Shown one piece after another: positions 23,175 to 57,019 of a stretch of 64,000 nt of DNA. The position numbers and the translations under genes were made by a program. Numbering within the stretch: position 1 is the first letter of the stretch; each line of letters begins with the position of its first letter. Under the pieces are notes generated by a model, which did no database searches, was not told the DNA's origin, and worked only from the letters and a program-made list of their open reading frames with translations. Origin of the DNA: Escherichia phage vB_EcoM-G157lw; sequence record OK331996.1. One strand, written 5' to 3'.

Positions 23175-23696
23175 ATGTTTATTTCAAGTGGAAGTGGTTT
23201 AATTCGTGTTGAATTTAAAAATGACATCTTCCTTATTCAAGGAGATGATATTATTAAAATGAGTTATGATGAAATTAAGAAAATTTGTAATGCTCTTGAA
23301 AGTCATGGAAAAGTGAACGCTGTTATTGATATTGGTGATTTATGGGTGACACTTTATGAAGTATCCGAAGGATTTAATATTGAAGATGAAAACAACATCT
23401 TAGCTATTGATAAAAGAAGCGATTTGTTTGATGTGTTAAAAGTTTATGAACAGTCAAACGGTGGAAGAAAAGCTGTATTGATTTATCAAAAACCACATTC
23501 ATGTGGAACTGCTTCAATCATTTCAGATATTGAAGATGAAACTGATACTTATATGTGTGTTTTAAAAGCTGGTGGTGACCGTCATCCGGATTTTATTTCT
23601 ATTCGTCAAAACAATGGAGAAATTTCATTATCAAAATCAGAAGCTGAAGCTATGATTAAGTATTTAACAACTGTTACACCTTCAATGAAAGGATAA
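23175..23696 (+). CDS. hypothetical protein, 173 aa, likely paralog of preceding gene
   Basis: C-terminus EAMIKYLTTVTPSM versus EAIALKTYLDSVIPTM. Confidence 0.55.
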   Translation: MFISSGSGLIRVEFKNDIFLIQGDDIIKMSYDEIKKICNALESHGKVNAVIDIGDLWVTLYEVSEGFNIEDENNILAIDKRSDLFDVLKVYEQSNGGRKAVLIYQKPHSCGTASIISDIEDETDTYMCVLKAGGDRHPDFISIRQNNGEISLSKSEAEAMIKYLTTVTPSMKG

Positions 23697-23698
23697 TT

Positions 23699-24160
23699 AT
23701 GATTATTAATGAAAACTCTTGGCACTATAAATTATTCAAACTGTTTAACGACGAATGGAAACGACCTAAGACACTGTGTGCATACTTTTGGTCTATTGTT
23801 ATCCCTACATTTTTCGTTTCTTTTTTCGGATGTACTATACTCGCAGGTCTAACTATTATCTGTGCAGAAATCATACAGAAATGGCTTATTTTTGGTAGTT
23901 TATGGACTCTTATTCCATCAGCATTTATACTTGCCATTTTGCTTATTTTACTTATTATTGGTTCATTTGTTATTCCTGCACAACTGCATGAAAAATATAA
24001 AGATTATAAATGGAAAAAGGATTATGCTTTACATGTAGAAAATATTGATAGGGCGTATAAAGGTTTACCTCCTATTCAACCCAAGAAATCTATTATCGTT
24101 GAATTTTTAAAAGCTCGTAAAGCTAAAGTATGTCCTGTTATTGAATATAAGGCTGAATGA
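23699..24160 (+). CDS. membrane protein (3-4 TM), 153 aa
   Basis: Hydrophobic segments; ATGA overlap. Confidence 0.55.
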   Translation: MIINENSWHYKLFKLFNDEWKRPKTLCAYFWSIVIPTFFVSFFGCTILAGLTIICAEIIQKWLIFGSLWTLIPSAFILAILLILLIIGSFVIPAQLHEKYKDYKWKKDYALHVENIDRAYKGLPPIQPKKSIIVEFLKARKAKVCPVIEYKAE

Positions 24161-25284: not shown

Positions 25285-26253
25285 ATGAAAACTGTAACTA
25301 TCAATAAGGGTATCTACTTCGGTAAAGAAATCTCTGGAACTTTTGAGCTCTTAGGCGAATGGTTCCCGGATAATGCTCCGGTAGATGCACAAGGAGATGG
25401 TAAAGTTTTTGTTGAAATTGACGGTAAACGTCGCGGTGTTTGGGTTTACAAATCAGACATTTCATATGATGGTGTAAAAGTTGAAGAAGTTAAAGAATCG
25501 TATGAAGATATGAAAACCCGCATTAATAAAAGATTTAATGTTATGGGAATGATGACGAATGGTATTATTAACGGAAACATTCGTTCATTAATTATTTCTG
25601 GTGCGGCGGGTATTGGTAAAACGTATTCTTTAGATAAAGCTTTAAATAAAGCAAATGATATTGGATACATTGAATATAAAAGCATTAATGGTAAAATCTC
25701 TGGTATTGGTCTTTATGAACAGCTTTGGAATAATCGTGAAGAGAATTCTGTCCTTTTGATTGATGATGTGGATGTTTTCTCTGATATGGACATTCTTAAT
25801 CTTCTGAAAGCTGCTCTGGACACTGGAGAGACCCGTAAAGTCTGCTGGAGCACTGCATCTTCTTACTTAGAAGAAAAAGGAATTGAGCGTGAGTTTGAAT
25901 TTAAAGGAACGATTGTTTTTATCACAAACGTTGACATTGACCGCGAATTAGACCGTGGTACTAAACTTGCTCCACATTTACAAGCATTAGTGTCCCGCTC
26001 AGTTTATTTGGATTTGGGTGTTCACACTAATGAAGAAATTATGGTCAGGGTTGAAGATGTTATTCTTTCAACTGACATGATGCAAAAGCGCGGTCTTTCT
26101 GATGAAGAAACTTATAAAGCATTATCATGGATGAAAGTCAATGTTAATCGTTTACGCAATGTTTCACTGCGTACTGCTCTTTATCTTGCTGACTTTATTA
26201 TGACCGACAAAAACGGTTGGGAAGAAATCGCTGAAACGGTATTATTAAAATGA
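25285..26253 (+). CDS. AAA-type ATPase, 322 aa
   Basis: Walker A GAAGIGKT, Walker B LLIDDVD; ATG after the GGAG of the conserved leader. Confidence 0.7.
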   Translation: MKTVTINKGIYFGKEISGTFELLGEWFPDNAPVDAQGDGKVFVEIDGKRRGVWVYKSDISYDGVKVEEVKESYEDMKTRINKRFNVMGMMTNGIINGNIRSLIISGAAGIGKTYSLDKALNKANDIGYIEYKSINGKISGIGLYEQLWNNREENSVLLIDDVDVFSDMDILNLLKAALDTGETRKVCWSTASSYLEEKGIEREFEFKGTIVFITNVDIDRELDRGTKLAPHLQALVSRSVYLDLGVHTNEEIMVRVEDVILSTDMMQKRGLSDEETYKALSWMKVNVNRLRNVSLRTALYLADFIMTDKNGWEEIAETVLLK

Positions 26254-26968
26254 AAAAATATTTTACTATCTATAAAACTGAAATATTAAATTTAAAGACA
26301 GGTATTAAGAAATACTATTATGGTCGACATATAACTAATAACATCAATGATTCGTATGTTGGTAGTGGAAATTATATAGAACGTGTAAAAGTGTCAAATG
26401 ACCACATATTATCAAAAACGGTTTTAGAAGTTTTTGATAATTATGATAAAATGGTACAAGCTGAAATATTATATATCATGGCAGGTAAATTGAAATATGG
26501 AAAAACTGTGTTAACCTGTCATACGGGGGTGAAGGAGGAAAGGTTGCAGATGAAACTAGGATAAAATGCAAAAAGCATTCTATAAATTTATGGAAAAATC
26601 CTAATCATATACAGCATATGAAGAAAAAGATGAAAGAGGTCACATCCACGCCGGAAGCTAAATTAAACACTTCAATAAAAACTTCGCAACGATATAAGGA
26701 CCCAGTTTTTGTTAGAAAAGTTAGTAATATTATTAAAAAGAAACTAAACAATCCTGCAGTAAAAGAAAAGCATATTAATGGAATTAAAGCTGCAAAGCGT
26801 TCTCATTTAACTATATGGCAGTATGAAGATGAATTATTCGAGCTTTGGAAAGAAACTAAATATGGATGGAGAAAATTTACAAAGGAAGCTATAAAACACG
26901 GATATCCAAATGAACCGTATCGTAGTATGGTATCAACTTTTCAGAAAAGACATTTAGAAGAATCCTAA
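26250..26968 (+). pseudogene. GIY-YIG homing endonuclease-like gene split by a frameshift near 26500-26560
   Basis: N-terminal ORF has GIY-YIG-like FTIYKTEILNLKTGIKKYYYG ... YVGSG; reading continues in another frame into ORF 26618-26968. Confidence 0.45.
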
Positions 26969-35108: not shown

Positions 35109-36922
35109 CAATTGAAAAAGAAATTGAAGGATTGATTCATAAAACTAATAAAGACCTTTTAAACGAGAATGCTAATAAAGATTCTCGTGTTTTTCCAACT
35201 CAACGGGACCTTATGGCTGGTATTGTGTCTAAACACATTGCCAAAAATATGGTCCCGTCTTTTATTATGAAAGCGCATGAAAGCGGAATTATCCATTTCC
35301 ACGATATTGATTATTCCCCTGCTCTTCCATTTACTAATTGTTGTTTAGTAGATTTAAAAGGAATGCTTGAGAACGGATTTAAGCTTGGTAATGCACAGAT
35401 TGAAACTCCTAAATCAATTGGAGTTGCTACTGCAATTATGGCACAAATTACTGCACAGGTTGCTTCCCATCAATACGGCGGAACGACTTTTGCTAATGTA
35501 GATAAAGTACTTTCTCCTTATGTTAAACGCACCTATGCAAAACATATTGAGGATGCAGAAAAATGGCAAATCGCTGATGCGTTGAATTATGCTCAATCTA
35601 AAACAGAAAAAGATGTATACGATGCATTCCAAGCTTATGAATATGAAGTAAATACTCTCTTTAGTTCAAACGGACAAACGCCTTTTGTAACAATTACATT
35701 TGGTACAGGAACTGACTGGACTGAACGAATGATTCAGAAAGCAATTCTGAAAAATCGTATTAAAGGTCTTGGTCGTGATGGGATAACTCCTATTTTCCCT
35801 AAACTTGTTATGTTCGTTGAAGAAGGTGTTAATCTTTATAAAGACGATCCGAACTATGATATTAAACAGCTTGCTCTAGAGTGCGCAAGCAAAAGGATGT
35901 ATCCTGATATTATTTCAGCTAAGAACAATAAAGCTATCACTGGTTCATCTATTCCTGTTTCTCCAATGGGTTGCCGCAGTTTCTTGAGTGTATGGAAAGA
36001 TTCGACTGGCAATGAAATTCTTGATGGACGTAATAATCTCGGTGTTGTAACACTGAATCTTCCTCGTATCGCATTAGATTCTTATATTGGAACACAGTTC
36101 AATGAACAGAAATTTGTTGAATTATTCAATGAACGAATGGATTTATGTTTTGAAGCATTGATGTGTAGAATTAGTTCCTTAAAAGGAGTTAAAGCGACTG
36201 TTGCTCCTATTCTTTACCAAGAAGGTGCATTCGGGGTTCGTCTTAAACCTGATGACGATATAATTGAGTTATTTAAAAACGGCAGAAGTTCAGTGTCTTT
36301 AGGATACATTGGTATTCATGAATTGAATATTCTTGTCGGTCGTGATATTGGACAAGAAATTTTAACTAAAATGAATGCTCGTCTTAAGCAGTGGACTGAA
36401 AGAACCGGATTTGCTTTTAGTTTATATTCGACTCCTGCTGAAAACCTTTGTTATCGCTTCTGTAAACTCGATACCGAAAAATATGGAAGTGTAAAGGATG
36501 TTACCGATAAAGGCTGGTACACTAACAGTTTCCATGTTTCAGTAGAAGAAAATATTACTCCGTTTGAAAAGATTTCTCGCGAAGCGCCGTATCATTTCAT
36601 TGCGACAGGCGGTCACATTTCTTATGTTGAACTTCCAGATATGAAAAACAATTTAAAGGGTCTTGAGGCTGTCTGGGATTATGCTGCACAACATTTAGAT
36701 TATTTTGGTGTTAATATGCCGGTAGATAAATGTTTTACATGCGGAAGTACCCATGAAATGACTCCTACTGAAAACGGATTTGTTTGTTCTATCTGTGGAG
36801 AAACTGATCCTAAAAAGATGAACACAATAAGAAGAACATGTGGTTATTTGGGAAATCCGAACGAACGTGGATTTAATCTCGGTAAAAATAAAGAAATCAT
36901 GCATAGGGTTAAACACCAATGA
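35105..36922 (+). CDS. nrdD: anaerobic ribonucleoside-triphosphate reductase NrdD, 605 aa, uninterrupted
   Basis: Full-length contiguous ORF with C-terminal Zn-ribbon and glycyl radical region RTCGYLGNP. Confidence 0.95.
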   Translation: MTIEKEIEGLIHKTNKDLLNENANKDSRVFPTQRDLMAGIVSKHIAKNMVPSFIMKAHESGIIHFHDIDYSPALPFTNCCLVDLKGMLENGFKLGNAQIETPKSIGVATAIMAQITAQVASHQYGGTTFANVDKVLSPYVKRTYAKHIEDAEKWQIADALNYAQSKTEKDVYDAFQAYEYEVNTLFSSNGQTPFVTITFGTGTDWTERMIQKAILKNRIKGLGRDGITPIFPKLVMFVEEGVNLYKDDPNYDIKQLALECASKRMYPDIISAKNNKAITGSSIPVSPMGCRSFLSVWKDSTGNEILDGRNNLGVVTLNLPRIALDSYIGTQFNEQKFVELFNERMDLCFEALMCRISSLKGVKATVAPILYQEGAFGVRLKPDDDIIELFKNGRSSVSLGYIGIHELNILVGRDIGQEILTKMNARLKQWTERTGFAFSLYSTPAENLCYRFCKLDTEKYGSVKDVTDKGWYTNSFHVSVEENITPFEKISREAPYHFIATGGHISYVELPDMKNNLKGLEAVWDYAAQHLDYFGVNMPVDKCFTCGSTHEMTPTENGFVCSICGETDPKKMNTIRRTCGYLGNPNERGFNLGKNKEIMHRVKHQ

Positions 36923-40153: not shown

Positions 40154-40231
40154 CTGATATCCTCTATGCTTTAAGATAGATCTTCAAATATTATGATATA
40201 ATAGATCTATGAATTGAGCTAAGAGGTGAAA

Positions 40232-40789
40232 ATGTCAGAAACTAAGCCTAAATATAATTACGTAAACAATAAAGAGCTTTTACAAGCTATTATTGATTGG
40301 AAAACAGAATTAGCAAATAATAAAGACCCAAATAAAGTAGTTCGTCAGAATGATACTATCGGATTAGCCATTATGCTTATTGCAGAAGGCTTATCTAAAC
40401 GTTTCAACTTTTCAGGATACACCCAGTCTTGGAAACAAGAAATGATTGCAGATGGTATAGAAGCTTCTATTAAGGGGCTTCACAATTTTGATGAAACGAA
40501 ATATAAAAACCCACATGCATATATAACTCAAGCTTGTTTTAATGCATTCGTCCAGCGTATTAAAAAAGAACGTAAGGAAGTTGCAAAGAAATATAGTTAC
40601 TTCGTTCACAATGTCTATGACAGCCGTGACGACGATATGGTTGCGTTAGTAGATGAAACTTTTATTCAAGACATCTACGATAAAATGACGCATTACGAAG
40701 AATCAACCTATAGAACACCGGGGGCTGAAAAGAAAAGTGTTGTAGACGATTCTCCTAGTTTGGATTTTTTATATGAGGCTAACGATTAA
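40232..40789 (+). CDS. 55: late-transcription sigma factor gp55, 185 aa
   Basis: [26 protein letters not shown] matches T4 gp55; ATG after AGAGGTG. Confidence 0.93.
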
Positions 40790-41310: not shown

Positions 41311-41658
41311 AATTAATGCAGGATTTACTGAATCTTTGAATGGTCATCTTTGCGTGAAAATTTCTGAAAAAGAATACCACGATAGTTCAATTAAAGAAGT
41401 TAATCCTCCTATTGTAAGAGCAGACCCTAATATGAAAGTGTGGGTTGATTCCTATCAAGTCAAAAAATGGTGGCAGCTGTGAAAGATGAACGCCCAGACT
41501 TGTGAAATAGATTATAATAAAATTCGTTCCTCTAAAGTAGAAATGATGAGACGCTTTAAAGAATCTCATGATAAAGCTAAAGCAGAAGGAACTATAACAT
41601 ATAAGCGTATAAAATTTAGAAGCTCTAATGAGCCTCTGTATGGTGTATTATGCGGATA

Positions 41659-41677
41659 GGAGCTTCGGCTCCTATAT
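41659..41677 (+). terminator. UUCG-tetraloop hairpin
   Basis: ggagcttcggctcc. Confidence 0.5.
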
Positions 41678-41725
41678 TGCTTTATAAATTTTTGGTAAAA
41701 TAAACCAAAACAATGAGGATATTAA

Positions 41726-42928
41726 ATGAAAGTATGCATTTTTATGGCTCGAGGTCTTGAAGGTTGTGGCGTAACTAAATTTTCTCTTGAGCAACGTGAT
41801 TGGTTTATTAAAAATGGTCATGAAGTAACTTTGGTTTATGCTAAAGATAAATCATTTACTCGTAATTGCGCGCATGATTATAAGTCATTTTCAATTCCGG
41901 TTTTATTGGCAAAAGAATACGATAAAACACTTAAGCTGGTAAATGATTGTGATATTCTAATTATCAATTCAGTTCCTGCTACTTCAGTCGAAGAAGACAC
42001 TATTAATAACTATAAAAAAATTATTGATAACATTAAACCTTCTGTTCGTGTTGTAGTTTATCAACATGACCATTCTTCTCTTTCTTTGCGCCGAAATTTG
42101 GGATTAGAAGAAACTGTTCGTCGAGCTGATGTTATTTTTAGCCATTCTGATAATGGTGATTTTAATAAAGTTTTGATGAAAGAATGGTATCCAGAAACCG
42201 TTTCTCTGTTTGATGATATTGAAGAAGCACCGACCGTATACAACTTTCAGCCTCCTATGGATATTGCGAAGGTTCGATCAACCTACTGGAAAGATGTTTC
42301 TGAAATTAACATGAATATCAACCGTTGGATTGGTCGCACGACTACATGGAAAGGTTTTTATCAGATGTTTGATTTTCATGAAAAACATCTTAAACCTGCA
42401 GGACTAAGTACTATTATGGAAGGTCTGGAACGTTCTCCAGCGTTCATTCCTATTAAAGAAAAAGGAATTCCATACGAGTATTATCGTCTTCATCAAGTAG
42501 ACCAAATTAAAATTGCTCCTAATTTGCCAACGCAAATTCTTGACCGTTATGTAAATAGCGAAATGCTTGAACGTATGAGTAAATCCGGTTTTGGTTATCA
42601 GTTGAGTAAGTTGGATAAAAAATATCTACAACGTTCTTTAGAATATACTCATCTCGAGCTTGGTGCATGTGGAACAATTCCGGTATTTTGGAAATCTACT
42701 GGCGAAAATTTAAAATTCCGTGTTGATAATACTCCGTTAATTTCTCATGATAGCGGTATCGTTTGGTTTGATGAAAATGACATGGAATCAACATTTGAAC
42801 GTATTAAAGAACTGTCATCTGACCGAGCTCTTTATGACCGCGAACGCGAAAAAGCTTATGAATTTTTGTATCAGCATCAAGATTCAAACTTCTGCTTTAA
42901 AGAACAGTTTGACATTATTACAAAATAA
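41726..42928 (+). CDS. a-gt: DNA alpha-glucosyltransferase, 400 aa
   Basis: Near-identical to recalled T4 alpha-gt (ICIFMARGLEGCGVTKFSLEQRDWFIKNGHEVTLVYAKDKSF...). Confidence 0.9.
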   Translation: MKVCIFMARGLEGCGVTKFSLEQRDWFIKNGHEVTLVYAKDKSFTRNCAHDYKSFSIPVLLAKEYDKTLKLVNDCDILIINSVPATSVEEDTINNYKKIIDNIKPSVRVVVYQHDHSSLSLRRNLGLEETVRRADVIFSHSDNGDFNKVLMKEWYPETVSLFDDIEEAPTVYNFQPPMDIAKVRSTYWKDVSEINMNINRWIGRTTTWKGFYQMFDFHEKHLKPAGLSTIMEGLERSPAFIPIKEKGIPYEYYRLHQVDQIKIAPNLPTQILDRYVNSEMLERMSKSGFGYQLSKLDKKYLQRSLEYTHLELGACGTIPVFWKSTGENLKFRVDNTPLISHDSGIVWFDENDMESTFERIKELSSDRALYDREREKAYEFLYQHQDSNFCFKEQFDIITK

Positions 42929-42948
42929 AGGGCTTCGGCCCTTTAGCT
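42929..42948 (+). terminator. UUCG-tetraloop hairpin
   Basis: agggcttcggccct. Confidence 0.55.
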
Positions 42949-43104
42949 TTATACGGAGTTTGATATAATGATATTTCTTGGATATGTGATACTTTTTCTT
43001 GCATTTTATCTATTCACTAGAGCATGTTGTGTTGGGTTCTTTAGCACACCAGATGGGTTTATTTCAATAATTTTATTTTGCATTTCAATGACGGTTCTTG
43101 ATAT

Positions 43105-43728
43105 ATGAAAAAATATATAACTTATTTAACAATATATAGTGGAGATAAACTTCCTCCTTTTTATATTGGATCTACGTCTTTAGATAGGCATTTAGCTGGA
43201 TATCATGGTTCAGTTTTATCTAAAAAGTATAAGAAAATTTATAATAAAGAGCTTTCAGATAATCCTCACTTATTTGATTCATGCATTTTAGCTGAATTTG
43301 ATACGCGTGAAGAAGCTATTAAATGCGAGTTATATTATCAACGATTGCATGATGCAGTTAAAAATCCATTATTCTTTAATATGTCATATGCTGCTCCAAA
43401 AGGTTCATTTGGAAGAGATAATAAAGGACAAAATCATCCATTATATGGTTCTCATAATTGTAAAGGAAATATACATTCACATGATCCATTAACAGGAAAA
43501 TCTGCCTTTTTGCCTTATATTCCAGAAGGTTATGTAAAAGGAAGGTCAAATAAATTTAAAGCTTCATCACATAATAAAGGTAAAAAATGGTATAATAACG
43601 GAGTTAAGCAAATGTTATGTCATGAACCTCCTGGTCCTGAATGGACAAAAGGAAAAATTAAAGAACTGGTTTCAAAAGCAGCTAAATTAGGATGGAAAAG
43701 ACACCATGAAAATACTAAACTTGGGTGA
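43105..43728 (+). mobile_element. free-standing GIY-YIG homing endonuclease gene (seg-like), 207 aa
   Basis: GIY-YIG-like YITYLTIYSGDKLPPFYIGSTS; basic C-terminal half; 3-prime end overlaps the start of gene 47. Confidence 0.6.
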
Positions 43729-44725
43729 TTGGCATTTAGGCGTTAAAGCTGATGATGAGTGGATTCGCGGTATTCAAATTGATGGAATTAAGCAAGCGAT
43801 AGAATATTCTAAGAAAAATGGAATTACTGTATGGATTCAATACGGTGATATTTTTGATGTGCGAAAAGCGATCACGCATAAAACTATGGAGTTTGCCCGT
43901 GAAATAGTTCAAATGCTTGATGGTGCTGGAATCACATTACATACTATTGTAGGAAATCACGATCTTCACTACAAAAATGTAATGCATCCAAATGCCTCTA
44001 CTGAGCTTTTGGCTAAATATCCTAATGTTAAAGTATATGATAAGCCTACTACAGTAGATTTTGACGGATGTTTGATTGATTTAATTCCTTGGATGTGTGA
44101 AGAAAATACTGGTGAAATTCTTGAACACATCAAAACTTCATCTGCTTCTTTTTGTGTTGGTCACTGGGAGCTGAATGGATTTTATTTTTATAAAGGAATG
44201 AAATCTCATGGTCTTGAACCTGATTTCCTTAAGACTTATAAAGAGGTGTGGTCTGGTCACTTCCATACTATCTCTGAGGCTGCTAACGTCAGATATATTG
44301 GGACACCATGGACACTAACTGCAGGTGACGAGAATGACCCTCGTGGGTTCTGGATGTTTGATACAGAAACAGAACGAATGGAATTTATTCCAAACAACAC
44401 TACCTGGCATCGTAGAATTCATTATCCATTTAAAGGAAAAATTGACTATAAAGATTTTACAAATCTATCAGTACGTGTTATAGTAACTGAGGTAGACAAA
44501 AATCTGACGAAGTTCGAATCTGAACTAGAAAAAGTTGTGCATTCATTACGAGTTGTGTCAAAAATTGATAACTCTGTCGAGTCAGATGACAGTGAAGAAG
44601 TTGAAGTTCAATCTCTTCAGACGTTAATGGAAGAATACATTAATGCAATTCCAGACATCACTGATTCTGACCGTGAAGCACTTATTCAATATGCGAATCA
44701 GCTATATGTAGAGGCAACACAATGA
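43706..44725 (+). CDS. 47: recombination endonuclease subunit gp47 (Mre11-like), 339 aa
   Basis: Phosphoesterase motifs LNLGDWHLG, GNHD; size matches T4 gp47. Confidence 0.9.
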   Translation: MKILNLGDWHLGVKADDEWIRGIQIDGIKQAIEYSKKNGITVWIQYGDIFDVRKAITHKTMEFAREIVQMLDGAGITLHTIVGNHDLHYKNVMHPNASTELLAKYPNVKVYDKPTTVDFDGCLIDLIPWMCEENTGEILEHIKTSSASFCVGHWELNGFYFYKGMKSHGLEPDFLKTYKEVWSGHFHTISEAANVRYIGTPWTLTAGDENDPRGFWMFDTETERMEFIPNNTTWHRRIHYPFKGKIDYKDFTNLSVRVIVTEVDKNLTKFESELEKVVHSLRVVSKIDNSVESDDSEEVEVQSLQTLMEEYINAIPDITDSDREALIQYANQLYVEATQ

Positions 44726-54180: not shown

Positions 54181-54921
54181 ATGATTAGTGACTCTATGAC
54201 AGTTGAAGAAATCCGTCTTCATTTGGGGCTTGCATTAAAAGAAAAAGATTTCGTAGTTGATAAAACTGGTGTTAAAACTATTGAAATTATTGGCGCATCA
54301 TTTGTAGCAGATGAACCGTTTATTTTTGGCGCTCTTAATGATGAATACATTCAGCGTGAACTTGAATGGTATAAATCTAAGAGCTTGTTCGTTAAAGATA
54401 TTCCAGGTGAAACACCGAAGATTTGGCAACAAGTAGCATCTTCTAAAGGCGAAATTAACTCGAATTATGGTTGGGCTATTTGGTCAGAAGATAACTATGC
54501 CCAGTATGATATGTGTTTAGCTGAACTTGGTCAAAATCCTGATTCTCGACGTGGTATCATGATTTATACTCGTCCATCCATGCAATTTGACTATAATAAA
54601 GATGGTATGTCAGATTTCATGTGTACTAATACAGTACAGTACCTGATTCGTGATAAGAAAGTAAATGCAGTAGTAAGCATGCGCTCAAATGACGTGGTCT
54701 TCGGATTCCGTAATGATTATGCATGGCAAAAATACGTATTAGATAAATTAGTATCTGATTTGAATGCCGGCGATTCAACTCGTCAGTATAAAGCAGGTTC
54801 TATTATATGGAATGTCGGAAGTCTTCATGTATATTCTCGTCATTTTTACTTGGTTGATCATTGGTGGAATACTGGCGAAACTCATATTGTGAAAAAAGAC
54901 TATAAAGGTGTGTGGAAATGA
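54181..54921 (+). CDS. 42: dCMP hydroxymethylase gp42, 246 aa
   Basis: Thymidylate-synthase-like fold; size and position match T4 gp42. Confidence 0.9.
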   Translation: MISDSMTVEEIRLHLGLALKEKDFVVDKTGVKTIEIIGASFVADEPFIFGALNDEYIQRELEWYKSKSLFVKDIPGETPKIWQQVASSKGEINSNYGWAIWSEDNYAQYDMCLAELGQNPDSRRGIMIYTRPSMQFDYNKDGMSDFMCTNTVQYLIRDKKVNAVVSMRSNDVVFGFRNDYAWQKYVLDKLVSDLNAGDSTRQYKAGSIIWNVGSLHVYSRHFYLVDHWWNTGETHIVKKDYKGVWK

Positions 54922-55760
54922 TTCAATTCGTAATTCCAAGTTATCAGCGTGTCGGGGCAGTTTCTGCCCTTGATATGTTTCCGACTGATTATGAACCGCA
55001 TATTGTAGTGCGTGAACATGAAGAAAAAGCTTATTATGATGCCTATGGGTCTAGAGCTAAAATTATAACTATTCCTGATGATGTAAACGGAATTGCCGGT
55101 ACTCGTAAAGCAATTACTGATATGTATGCAGGTCAACGAATCTGGATGATTGACGATGATACTACTATTCGTATGAGTTCAATGCGAAAAAGAGATGACC
55201 GTCGTTGTGTAGATAAAGTCAATCAATTAACCCGTGAACAGTTCTATGAATTGATTCAATACGTCGAAGATGCCATGGATTGCGGGTATTATCACGGTCA
55301 TGCTCGTCTACCTATTTTTAAAATTACTTCATCTTGGGGTAATTATCGTGAAAATTCATATGGATTCACGAATACATGGTATGACCTTGGAAAACTTACG
55401 ACAGAACAAATTGGGTATGGAAAAATTGATTTGTGCGAAGATATGTATGCATTTCTCAATTTAATTAATCAAGGTTATCCGCATTTGGCCTTGTTCAAAT
55501 ATCTGGTTGTATCTGGAAAAGCACAAGCTCCTGGCGGGTGTAGTTCAATTCGTAGTAATTCTAAACATAATAGAGCGCTTGAGCAAATCAATAGAGAGTT
55601 TCCAGAGCAAGCTCGTTGGAAAACTTCTAATATTGAAAAACGAAAATCGTTGGGTGAAGAAGACGAGCCATTAAAGGTTCTTCGCATGTGTGTTTCGCGT
55701 AAAGAAAAATCAGAAGCATTTCATAAGTTTAATGCTATTCATCCAATAGCAGTTGATTAA
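54918..55760 (+). CDS. GT-A-type glycosyltransferase at the beta-gt locus (not T4 beta-gt), 280 aa
   Basis: DxD-like RIWMIDDDTTI; no similarity to recalled T4 beta-gt; ATG overlaps gene 42 stop. Confidence 0.65.
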   Translation: MIQFVIPSYQRVGAVSALDMFPTDYEPHIVVREHEEKAYYDAYGSRAKIITIPDDVNGIAGTRKAITDMYAGQRIWMIDDDTTIRMSSMRKRDDRRCVDKVNQLTREQFYELIQYVEDAMDCGYYHGHARLPIFKITSSWGNYRENSYGFTNTWYDLGKLTTEQIGYGKIDLCEDMYAFLNLINQGYPHLALFKYLVVSGKAQAPGGCSSIRSNSKHNRALEQINREFPEQARWKTSNIEKRKSLGEEDEPLKVLRMCVSRKEKSEAFHKFNAIHPIAVD

Positions 55761-55837
55761 TGCCTAAATTTATTGTGTTATAATTACTCTATCTTTAACC
55801 AGTGAGGAAAATATAATGATGCCTATGGAAAAAATGA

Positions 55838-57019
55838 ATGTCTATTGCAGATTTAAAATCCCGTTTGATTAAAGCTTCCACTTCTAAAATGACTGCTGAA
55901 CTGACTACATCTAAATTCTTTAATGAAAAGGATGTAATTCGTACAAAAATCCCAATGCTTAATATTGCTATTTCTGGTGCGATTGATGGCGGTATGCAGT
56001 CTGGTTTAACTATTTTTGCAGGTCCTTCTAAACACTTTAAATCAAATATGTCTTTGACTATGGTTGCGGCATATTTGAACAAATATCCTGACGCGGTTTG
56101 TCTATTCTATGATAGTGAATTTGGTATTACTCCAGCTTATTTGCGATCCATGGGAGTTGACCCGGAACGAGTAATTCATACGCCGATTCAGTCAGTTGAA
56201 CAGCTGAAAATTGATATGGTGAACCAGCTTGAAGCTATTGAGCGCGGTGAAAAGGTTATTGTATTCATCGACTCAATCGGTAATATGGCTTCTAAGAAAG
56301 AAACGGAAGATGCCTTAAATGAAAAATCTGTGGCAGATATGACTCGTGCTAAATCACTGAAGTCATTATTCCGTATCGTTACTCCTTACTTTAGCATTAA
56401 AAATATTCCATGTGTTGCGGTTAACCATACAATTGAAACAATTGAAATGTTTAGTAAAACCGTGATGACAGGTGGTACAGGCGTAATGTATTCGGCTGAT
56501 ACAGTATTCATTATCGGTAAGCGTCAGATTAAAGATGGTTCTGATCTTCAGGGGTATCAATTTGTTCTAAATGTAGAAAAATCTCGTACCGTTAAAGAAA
56601 AAAGTAAATTCTTTATTGATGTTAAATTTGACGGTGGTATTGATCCTTATTCTGGATTGCTAGATATGGCTCTTGAATTAGGATTTGTAGTAAAACCTAA
56701 GAATGGTTGGTATGCTCGTGAATTTCTTGATGAAGAAACCGGTGAGATGATTCGCGAAGAAAAATCTTGGCGTGCAAAAGATACCAACTGCACTACATTC
56801 TGGGGTCCTTTATTTAAGCATCAACCATTCCGAGATGCTATTAAGCGTGCTTATCAGTTAGGTGCTATTGATAGTAATGAAATTGTTGAAGCTGAAGTTG
56901 ATGAATTGATTAACTCAAAAGTTGAAAAATTTAAATCTCCAGAAAGTAAAAGTAAATCAGCTGCTGATTTAGAAACTGACCTCGAGCAGTTAAGTGATAT
57001 GGAAGAATTTAATGAATAA
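55838..57019 (+). CDS. uvsX: recombinase UvsX (RecA-like), 393 aa
   Basis: Closely matches recalled T4 UvsX over its whole length. Confidence 0.95.
   Translation: MSIADLKSRLIKASTSKMTAELTTSKFFNEKDVIRTKIPMLNIAISGAIDGGMQSGLTIFAGPSKHFKSNMSLTMVAAYLNKYPDAVCLFYDSEFGITPAYLRSMGVDPERVIHTPIQSVEQLKIDMVNQLEAIERGEKVIVFIDSIGNMASKKETEDALNEKSVADMTRAKSLKSLFRIVTPYFSIKNIPCVAVNHTIETIEMFSKTVMTGGTGVMYSADTVFIIGKRQIKDGSDLQGYQFVLNVEKSRTVKEKSKFFIDVKFDGGIDPYSGLLDMALELGFVVKPKNGWYAREFLDEETGEMIREEKSWRAKDTNCTTFWGPLFKHQPFRDAIKRAYQLGAIDSNEIVEAEVDELINSKVEKFKSPESKSKSAADLETDLEQLSDMEEFNE

Follow-up and report, generated by a model that had tools for sequence, protein, structure and literature searches.

A putative seg-type GIY-YIG homing endonuclease gene at the 47.1/47 junction of Escherichia phage vB_EcoM-G157lw

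Introduction

When T-even phages infect the same cell, homing endonuclease genes drive local gene conversion between them and influence which alleles of essential genes spread. In Escherichia phage vB_EcoM-G157lw (OK331996.1; here G157lw), an ORF directly before gene 47 was read in a first-pass annotation, made from the DNA letters alone, as a GIY-YIG homing endonuclease gene and a candidate mobile insertion. The locus thus raises the question of whether this gene is a mobile element homing at the start of gene 47, and how it is fitted between its neighbors. The annotation "putative homing endonuclease" already exists in some GenBank records (PaulHMueller, KP185, LC53); in the published literature, no description of such an enzyme at the 47.1/47 locus was found. 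Positions refer to the 64,000-nt stretch of G157lw DNA that was analyzed (the window); those marked L004 to L025 refer to sequences of other phages.

Results

The ORF and its neighborhood

The 207-aa ORF is real: it has an ATG start on the + strand, and its N-terminus, MKKYITYLTIYSGDKLPPFYIGSTS, is exactly as had been quoted (Table 1). The 23-nt overlap with gene 47 was likewise confirmed, gene 47 starting at 43706. The ORF had been placed between a-gt and gene 47. Both are indeed its neighbors, but it is not directly adjacent to a-gt, because gene 47.1 intervenes. The gene order in G157lw is 55, a-gt.5 to a-gt.2, a-gt, 47.1, endonuclease ORF, 47, 46.2, 46.1, 46, and this 55/a-gt/47/46 segment has the opposite orientation to the T4 reference. 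The N-terminus of gp47 (MKILNLGDWHLG) carries phosphoesterase motif I.

The TGA stop codon of 47.1 overlaps the endonuclease ATG (ATGA), and the ORF is predicted to be translationally coupled to 47.1. A search for a dedicated sigma-70-type promoter near the ORF gave nothing above chance, and the T4 late promoter (TATAAATA) had no match anywhere between 20670 and 62410. No promoter of its own was seen for the endonuclease gene, which is apparently transcribed as part of the a-gt/47.1/47/46 unit. Two GC-rich UUCG-tetraloop hairpins flank a-gt, at 41656-41675 (ATAGGAGCTTCGGCTCCTAT) and 42926-42945 (AAAGGGCTTCGGCCCTTT), the second of them conserved in T4.

Table 1. Coordinates of features at the gene 47 locus of G157lw and of gene 39 paralogs in other phages.
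Feature	Coordinates	Strand	Evidence or remark
Gene 55	40226-40789		same T4-like segment
a-gt	41726-42928	+	Pfam AGT, 784 bits
UUCG-loop hairpin 3' of a-gt, AAAGGGCTTCGGCCCTTT	42926..42945	+	also in T4
Gene 47.1 homolog, 46 aa, predicted membrane protein	42968..43108	+	phrog_6693, 102 bits; T4 annotation
Putative seg-type endonuclease ORF, free-standing	43105..43728	+	ORF list, PHROG matches, missing in T4, 68 Tequatrovirus records
Left junction, ATGAAAA	43105..43111	+	T4 alignment; panel of 14 genomes
Predicted GIY-YIG catalytic domain, aa 1-100	43105..43404	+	Pfam, conservation, AF2, structural match
Flexible linker, aa 101-120	43405..43464	+	pLDDT ~60
Basic C-terminal putative DNA-binding domain, aa 121-200	43465..43704	+	AF2 pLDDT 86-93, charge, motifs
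Gene 47, Mre11/SbcD-like nuclease subunit	43706..44725	+	Pfam Metallophos
Right junction, second ATGAAAA (gene 47 start)	43706..43712	+	T4 alignment; panel of 14 genomes
Four fixed substitutions, 43714 A, 43715 C, 43720 C, 43723 G	43714..43723	+	T4 alignment, panel
gp47 codon 42	43829..43831	+	GTA (Val) in seg+ panel genomes, ACC/ACA (Thr) in T4-type; fixed at 43829-43830
Gene 39 paralog, TG1	L023 1798-2481		overlaps topoisomerase II large-subunit gene (39/60)
Gene 39 paralog, pKp20	L024 1798-2490		overlaps topoisomerase II large-subunit gene (39/60)
Gene 39 paralog, Bp7	L025 1804-2484		overlaps topoisomerase II large-subunit gene (39/60)

A clean insertion at the start of gene 47

T4 is not known to have a homing endonuclease gene at this position, and the alignment with T4 indeed shows one clean 601-bp gap, outside which the two phages are near identical across the aligned locus. 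Each end of the insert reads ATGAAAA (43105 and 43706). In T4, the 47.1 stop codon overlaps the gene 47 start (ATGA), and the left ATGAAAA is the gene 47 start; in G157lw, the same sequence, still overlapping the 47.1 stop, is the endonuclease start. Gene 47 of G157lw has its new start within the final eight endonuclease codons (...H-H-E-N-T-K-L-G-stop). The junction was identical across a panel of seven carriers (G157lw, PaulHMueller, Lutter, fPS-90, GEP001, LYE-01, phiC600P9) and seven non-carriers (T4, T2, RB6, RB18, RB27, RB32, ECML-134).

The protein has a divergent GIY-YIG domain

GIY-YIG (PF01541) was the sole Pfam family found in the protein. It matched residues 4-84 at E=3e-4, so that the expected profile match was there, but its 21.4 bits are below the gathering score of 22.6. 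We regard this as the near miss of a divergent subfamily and not as evidence against a GIY-YIG fold. NUMOD3 (PF07460) gave no Pfam match even at E≤1, an NCBIfam search yielded noise only, and PDB sequences searched with the single protein and with a 53-sequence profile returned nothing useful. In PHROG, the protein matched phrog_10820 (317 bits; labeled "HNH endonuclease") and phrog_314 ("homing endonuclease"; 66 bits). A large protein collection contained 170 homologs, many of which share only the N-terminal ~115 residues and have C-terminal NUMOD3 repeats. Among 53 aligned homologs, Pfam detected GIY-YIG in 15 (E≤0.01) and NUMOD3 in 26.

An AlphaFold2 (AF2) model built on the 53-sequence alignment had a mean pLDDT of 85, with 93-98 for residues 1-100. 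According to AF2 and Foldseek, its N-terminal domain shows the three-stranded alpha/beta GIY-YIG fold. The top three Foldseek matches in the PDB were all I-TevI (prob 0.97-1.0; TM 0.53-0.61 on target), the GIY-YIG enzyme encoded by the td intron of T4 (PDB 1LN0/1MK0). Matches among viral models were labeled GIY-YIG, Seg-like, NUMOD or intron endonuclease, and further structural neighbors were T4 EndoII and PD-T4-3, GIY-YIG enzymes with non-homing roles.

The GIY-like motif is ITY7LT and the YIG-type motif FY20-I21-G22-S23, with AF2 strands at residues 4-11 and 19-25; the other key residues of the domain are R28, Y33-x-G35-S36, E75 and N92. In the 53-sequence alignment, E75, N92, Y33 and S39 are invariant, while Y7, Y20, I21, G22, S23 and R68 are conserved in at least 90% of the homologs. 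The GIY-YIG superfamily has a conserved Arg in the helix after YIG (R27 in I-TevI), a metal-binding Glu (I-TevI E75) and a conserved Asn (I-TevI N90). The Arg would correspond here to R28, in a column that is K/R in most of the 53 homologs and N/S in a few. When the family was aligned to I-TevI with hhalign, E75 stood opposite I-TevI E75, in a match that was local and weak (probability 0.2, E 0.33); because of this weakness, the GIY-YIG assignment rests on the predicted structure and the conserved residues. Judging from its spacing, N92 is probably the equivalent of N90. We conclude from the model and the conserved residues that residues 1-100 form a divergent GIY-YIG nuclease domain, in which the key Tyr, Glu and Asn are intact.

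Many RefSeq records and phrog_10820 label the protein as an HNH endonuclease, and this label is what speaks for an HNH enzyme. It was rejected: no Pfam HNH family matched at E≤1, no HNH structure was among the top structural matches, the fold fitting GIY-YIG enzymes only, and neither the T4 HNH genes mobB, mobC and mobD nor T2_056 showed meaningful similarity to the G157lw protein. We consider the probability of an HNH enzyme negligible and the RefSeq/PHROG label wrong.

For the C-terminal half, a basic composition and repeated N-x-x-x-Y/W-G-x-x-H/K motifs had been described. The half is indeed basic (20 K+R versus 7 D+E; pI 10.0), but the repeats did not hold up: no strict instance of N-x-x-x-[YW]-G-x-x-[HK] is present, and the one loose copy is NHPLYGSH at 110. 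This linker sequence is the first half of a NUMOD3-like motif and aligns with the NUMOD3 start of homologs (NNPxYGK). The true C-terminal repeat is a beta-hairpin followed by PE(G)[YW]xKG[RK], at residues 140 and 178; in the AF2 model, residues 121-200 consist of two such units plus a terminal helix. The C-terminal domain had no match to curated DNA-binding families in Pfam and is common only to the gene-47-associated orthologs described below.

The insert is sporadic and linked to the 5' part of gene 47

A 1301-nt query across the locus retrieved 535 phage records, almost all of them Tequatrovirus, and 68 of these contain the insert (~13%, about one in eight). The gene is thus not conserved at this locus in all relatives, in keeping with the mobile insertion that had been suggested. 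With a synthetic "precise deletion" query, 506 records were retrieved, about 438 of which have empty sites, nearly all with the T4-type junction.

In the panel, all fixed differences between the seven carriers and the seven non-carriers are downstream of the insert; upstream, in 47.1 and a-gt, no position segregates with it. Four fixed substitutions (Table 1) are synonymous in gene 47 codons 3-6 and distinguish 7/7 carriers from 7/7 T4-type empty sites. They are candidates for changes that protect the carrier's own target from cutting. The fixed differences in gene 47 may also have hitch-hiked without determining immunity; a part of them sits within the endonuclease ORF, and they are also present in the rare empty sites that have carrier-type flanks.

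Compared to G157lw, the endonuclease gene differs by 0 nt in PaulHMueller, 3 nt in Lutter and 2 nt in fPS-90, and a-gt plus 47.1 by 29, 33 and 153 nt, respectively. A near-identical endonuclease gene is thus present in genomes with a-gt differing by up to 11%. Diversity in the first 145 nt of gene 47 (43706-43850) was 0.017 among carriers, 0.061 among non-carriers and 0.103, its peak, between the groups; beyond 44100, the corresponding values were 0.023, 0.024 and 0.026. Linkage with the insert extends over the first 150-400 nt of gene 47 only. A near-identical gene in unrelated upstream backgrounds, with linkage on one side, is consistent with the footprint expected of homing with asymmetric co-conversion. 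Since the linkage is one-sided, the break side would be the 5' end of gene 47. This putative co-conversion is read from a population footprint, not from a cross.

Decayed and lost copies

Some copies of the gene are damaged. The GEP001 copy has a premature stop at codon 183, those of KNP1 and KNP5 share a 124-bp internal deletion, and those of ESh36, ZCEC15 and ERS-1 match only in two to three pieces or frames. Furthermore, at least four genomes (Ec_YwIITB1, SHFML-26, BCPEco_001, BCPSen_003) lack the gene and yet closely match the carrier-type junction. In SHFML-26 and BCPEco_001, both of whose sequences were read, an empty 47.1/47 junction (~457-460 of L019 and L020, respectively) is followed by carrier-type codons 3-6 and a Val codon 42. 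Such sites have either arisen by precise loss across the 7-nt repeat or represent a pre-existing resistant allele. Together, empty, occupied, decayed and carrier-flanked empty sites look like successive stages of the homing endonuclease life cycle.

That the decayed copies occur in viable phages would also fit a once-mobile gene which is now catalytically dead or has no cleavable target, and which persists mainly because the gene 47 start region lies inside it. The gene 47 ATG is 23 nt inside the ORF, so that a deletion would be costly, and this ATG is not preceded by any obvious strong Shine-Dalgarno sequence; the Arg after YIG, moreover, is not strictly conserved among homologs. Against this stand the E75, N92 and YIG residues, which are intact in G157lw and invariant or nearly so in the family, and selection at the protein level, as dN/dS is ~0.2 across genera and the two Tequatrovirus allele groups, which are 21-23 nt apart, differ by only 3-5 aa. 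Near-identical copies in divergent a-gt backgrounds imply recent transfer, and precise loss is evidently possible, as SHFML-26 illustrates. We therefore regard a dead element as unlikely.

Orthologs at gene 47 in other genera

Two-domain orthologs with 50-70% identity directly precede gene 47 in phages of five further genera of the Straboviridae: Klebsiella phage SmallBear, Serratia phage LC53 (Winklervirus), IME540 (Dhakavirus), AV116 (Mosigvirus) and Aeromonas phage L9-6 (Biquartavirus). Four of these orthologs share their 3' end with gene 47 ATGAAAAT or, in AV116, with its ATGA start. The overlap with gene 47 ATGAAAAT explains the conserved ...(H/N/Y)-E-N... C-terminus of three orthologs. 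In all five phages, gp47 starts with MKI(L/I)(N/H)xGD(W/L)H, the first phosphoesterase motif. The AV116-type arrangement was present in 5 of 218 matching Mosigvirus records (~2%), and the distribution of the gene is thus sporadic in two genera. The dN/dS values of the orthologs are 0.16-0.28, with dS saturated, and indicate that the endonuclease orthologs are under purifying selection.

Orthologs at the same position in six genera could mean that the gene is an ancestral 47.1/47 resident that was lost repeatedly, and not a spreading insertion; the rare empty sites with seg-type flanks do resemble precise deletions. However, about 435 empty Tequatrovirus sites have one identical junction and T4-type codons, and vertical descent plus loss cannot give 0-3 nt differences in the gene next to a-gt differences of up to 11%. 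An ancestral resident is therefore highly improbable.

The long association with gene 47 in six genera and the purifying selection may also be read as domestication, with the protein serving as a nuclease or DNA-binding protein in exclusion without gene conversion, in SegB-like anti-defence amplification or in I-TevI-style autoregulation or repression of gene 47. The non-homing GIY-YIG enzymes among the structural neighbors, T4 EndoII and PD-T4-3, speak for such a role, as does SegB, which is reported to promote the amplification of anti-defence loci (PMC13096335). On the other hand, the patchy minority distribution (13% of Tequatrovirus, ~2% of Mosigvirus-region matches) is unlike that of a beneficial gene, and the linkage footprint is that of co-conversion. 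We consider domestication improbable, somewhat more so than a dead element.

Other mobile and glucosylation loci

Elsewhere in the window, a ~700-bp insertion relative to T4 (26232-26968) lies between the nrdC.10 and nrdC.9 homologs and contains two adjacent ORFs. One (26250-26564; 104 aa) has a Seg-like N-terminus (YFTIYKT...YYYGRH...DSYVGSG), and together with the other (26618-26968; 116 aa) it matches consecutive parts of phrog_314 "homing endonuclease". By these matches, the insertion holds a second seg-like gene, which appears to be split or degenerate.

T4 mobB is missing from G157lw between a-gt.2 and a-gt (41660-41735), as are mobC (about 36920) and the nrdD intron with I-TevII (35640-35643). 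T4 mobD is also missing, and its position (23193-24149) holds a y05I-like ORF and a membrane-protein ORF. At 54903-55850, T4 b-gt and segA are missing and replaced by a 282-aa ORF (54912-55760), which matches beta-glucosyl-HMC-alpha-glucosyltransferase (phrog_842, 301 bits; Pfam TAGT). The combination of a-gt and ba-gt would give G157lw a T6-type DNA glucosylation. By sequence comparison, the predicted homing endonuclease gene set of G157lw is largely different from that of T4.

Another endonuclease gene is located between 46.1 and 46 in T2 (L004 3916-4530), ECML-134 (L005 3916-4770), Lutter (L009 4517-5371) and LYE-01 (L012 4565-5419); the latter two also carry the gene 47 insert. This 46.1/46 "homing endonuclease" was rejected as a relative of the G157lw protein (BLASTP E 0.24; HNH-like HHVLPKS motif), and it is missing from G157lw. 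The 46/47 recombination-nuclease operon seems to be an insertion hot spot.

Discussion

The predicted fold, the conserved residues and the insertion pattern support the seg-type GIY-YIG reading of the first-pass annotation. We conclude, with a probability of roughly 80%, that the ORF is a free-standing gene for a seg-type GIY-YIG enzyme that homes at the 47.1/47 junction. In the mechanism that we propose, the basic C-terminal domain would bind DNA, with the GIY-YIG head tethered via the flexible linker. The target of the putative enzyme would be a co-infecting relative with an uninterrupted T4-type 47.1/47 junction, and the cut would fall near this junction or in the first ~130 nt of the T4-type gene 47 allele. 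Recombination-dependent repair would then use the carrier as template and copy its endonuclease gene along with the neighboring 150-400 nt of gene 47. The carrier itself may be protected by the split site, by the four synonymous substitutions in codons 3-6 of gene 47, or by both. Upon insertion, the endonuclease gene would take the original start codon of gene 47 and provide gene 47 with a new one in its own last eight codons.

More tentatively, we suggest that one lineage of this element has been attached to the gene 47 start across at least six Straboviridae genera, that it recognizes the DNA encoding motif I of gp47 and that, by enclosing the start codon and translation initiation region of gene 47 in its 3' end, it holds gene 47 expression "hostage", a sister lineage residing at gene 39. 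This extension is speculative and rather doubtful. If it were true, the expression of a recombination gene would depend on the element, whose loss would be slower, and the gene 47 product would help to process the breaks made by the same enzyme.

The gene would add a homing site at the 47.1/47 junction, and most stages of the homing cycle are visible here in public genomes. The orthologs and paralogs are suggestive of one catalytic domain that was retargeted by exchange of DNA-binding tails. In practice, the gain is modest: the label "HNH endonuclease" needs correction, natural carrier and empty alleles are a ready experimental system, and the protein could be a new sequence-specific GIY-YIG scaffold. 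No concept is changed.

T4 SegA to SegG are free-standing GIY-YIG homing endonucleases, with SegG encoded next to gene 32, SegF next to gene 56 and SegB in the tRNA cluster (PMC2330249, PMC2988022). The G157lw gene resembles them as a free-standing ORF between conserved T-even genes, with a product of ~200-220 aa, an N-terminal GIY-YIG domain and a basic C-terminal half. It also shares with them the presence/absence polymorphism among relatives and the linkage of flanking markers expected from co-conversion, and the product shares a Y-x-G-S after YIG (GYHGS in G157lw, GYMGSG in SegA, KYPGSG in SegF). By analogy with SegB, SegF, SegG and I-TevI, on which nuclease activity, target, immunity and homing are modeled, it is probably seg-type in function and architecture (PMC2330249, PMC2988022).

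The differences are equally clear. The 47.1/47 locus differs from that of every T4 seg gene, and while T4 seg genes occupy an intergenic gap, the G157lw ORF has start and stop sequences in common with its neighbor genes. Its C-terminal domain has no detectable NUMOD3. The family HMM gave no meaningful score with T4 SegA, SegF, I-TevII or MobB/C/D; SegA (8.6 bits) and SegF (6.5 bits) scored no better than the unrelated HNH Mob proteins, and T4 is not among the 173 tblastn matches of the G157lw protein. By this comparison, which among the Seg proteins covered SegA and SegF, the protein does not appear to be a sequence-level member of the T4 SegA/SegF family. I-TevI is intron encoded, unlike the G157lw gene; the C-terminal half of the G157lw protein is without a zinc finger or helix-turn-helix, and identity to I-TevI is just 17-19%.

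The gene 39 paralogs, found in three genera (Yersinia phage TG1 gp009, Klebsiella phage pKp20, Escherichia phage Bp7 gp108), belong to the same GIY-YIG subfamily, with 45-67% identity over ~115 aa. Like the G157lw gene, they directly precede an essential gene of DNA metabolism and overlap it. They differ in their locus, upstream of topoisomerase gene 39/60, and in their C-terminal NUMOD3 repeats, only the GIY-YIG domain being in common. As judged from these sequences, the subfamily comprises at least two lineages, each faithful to its locus and with a different DNA-binding half, which fits a modular architecture with a GIY-YIG catalytic head and a swappable DNA-binding tail.
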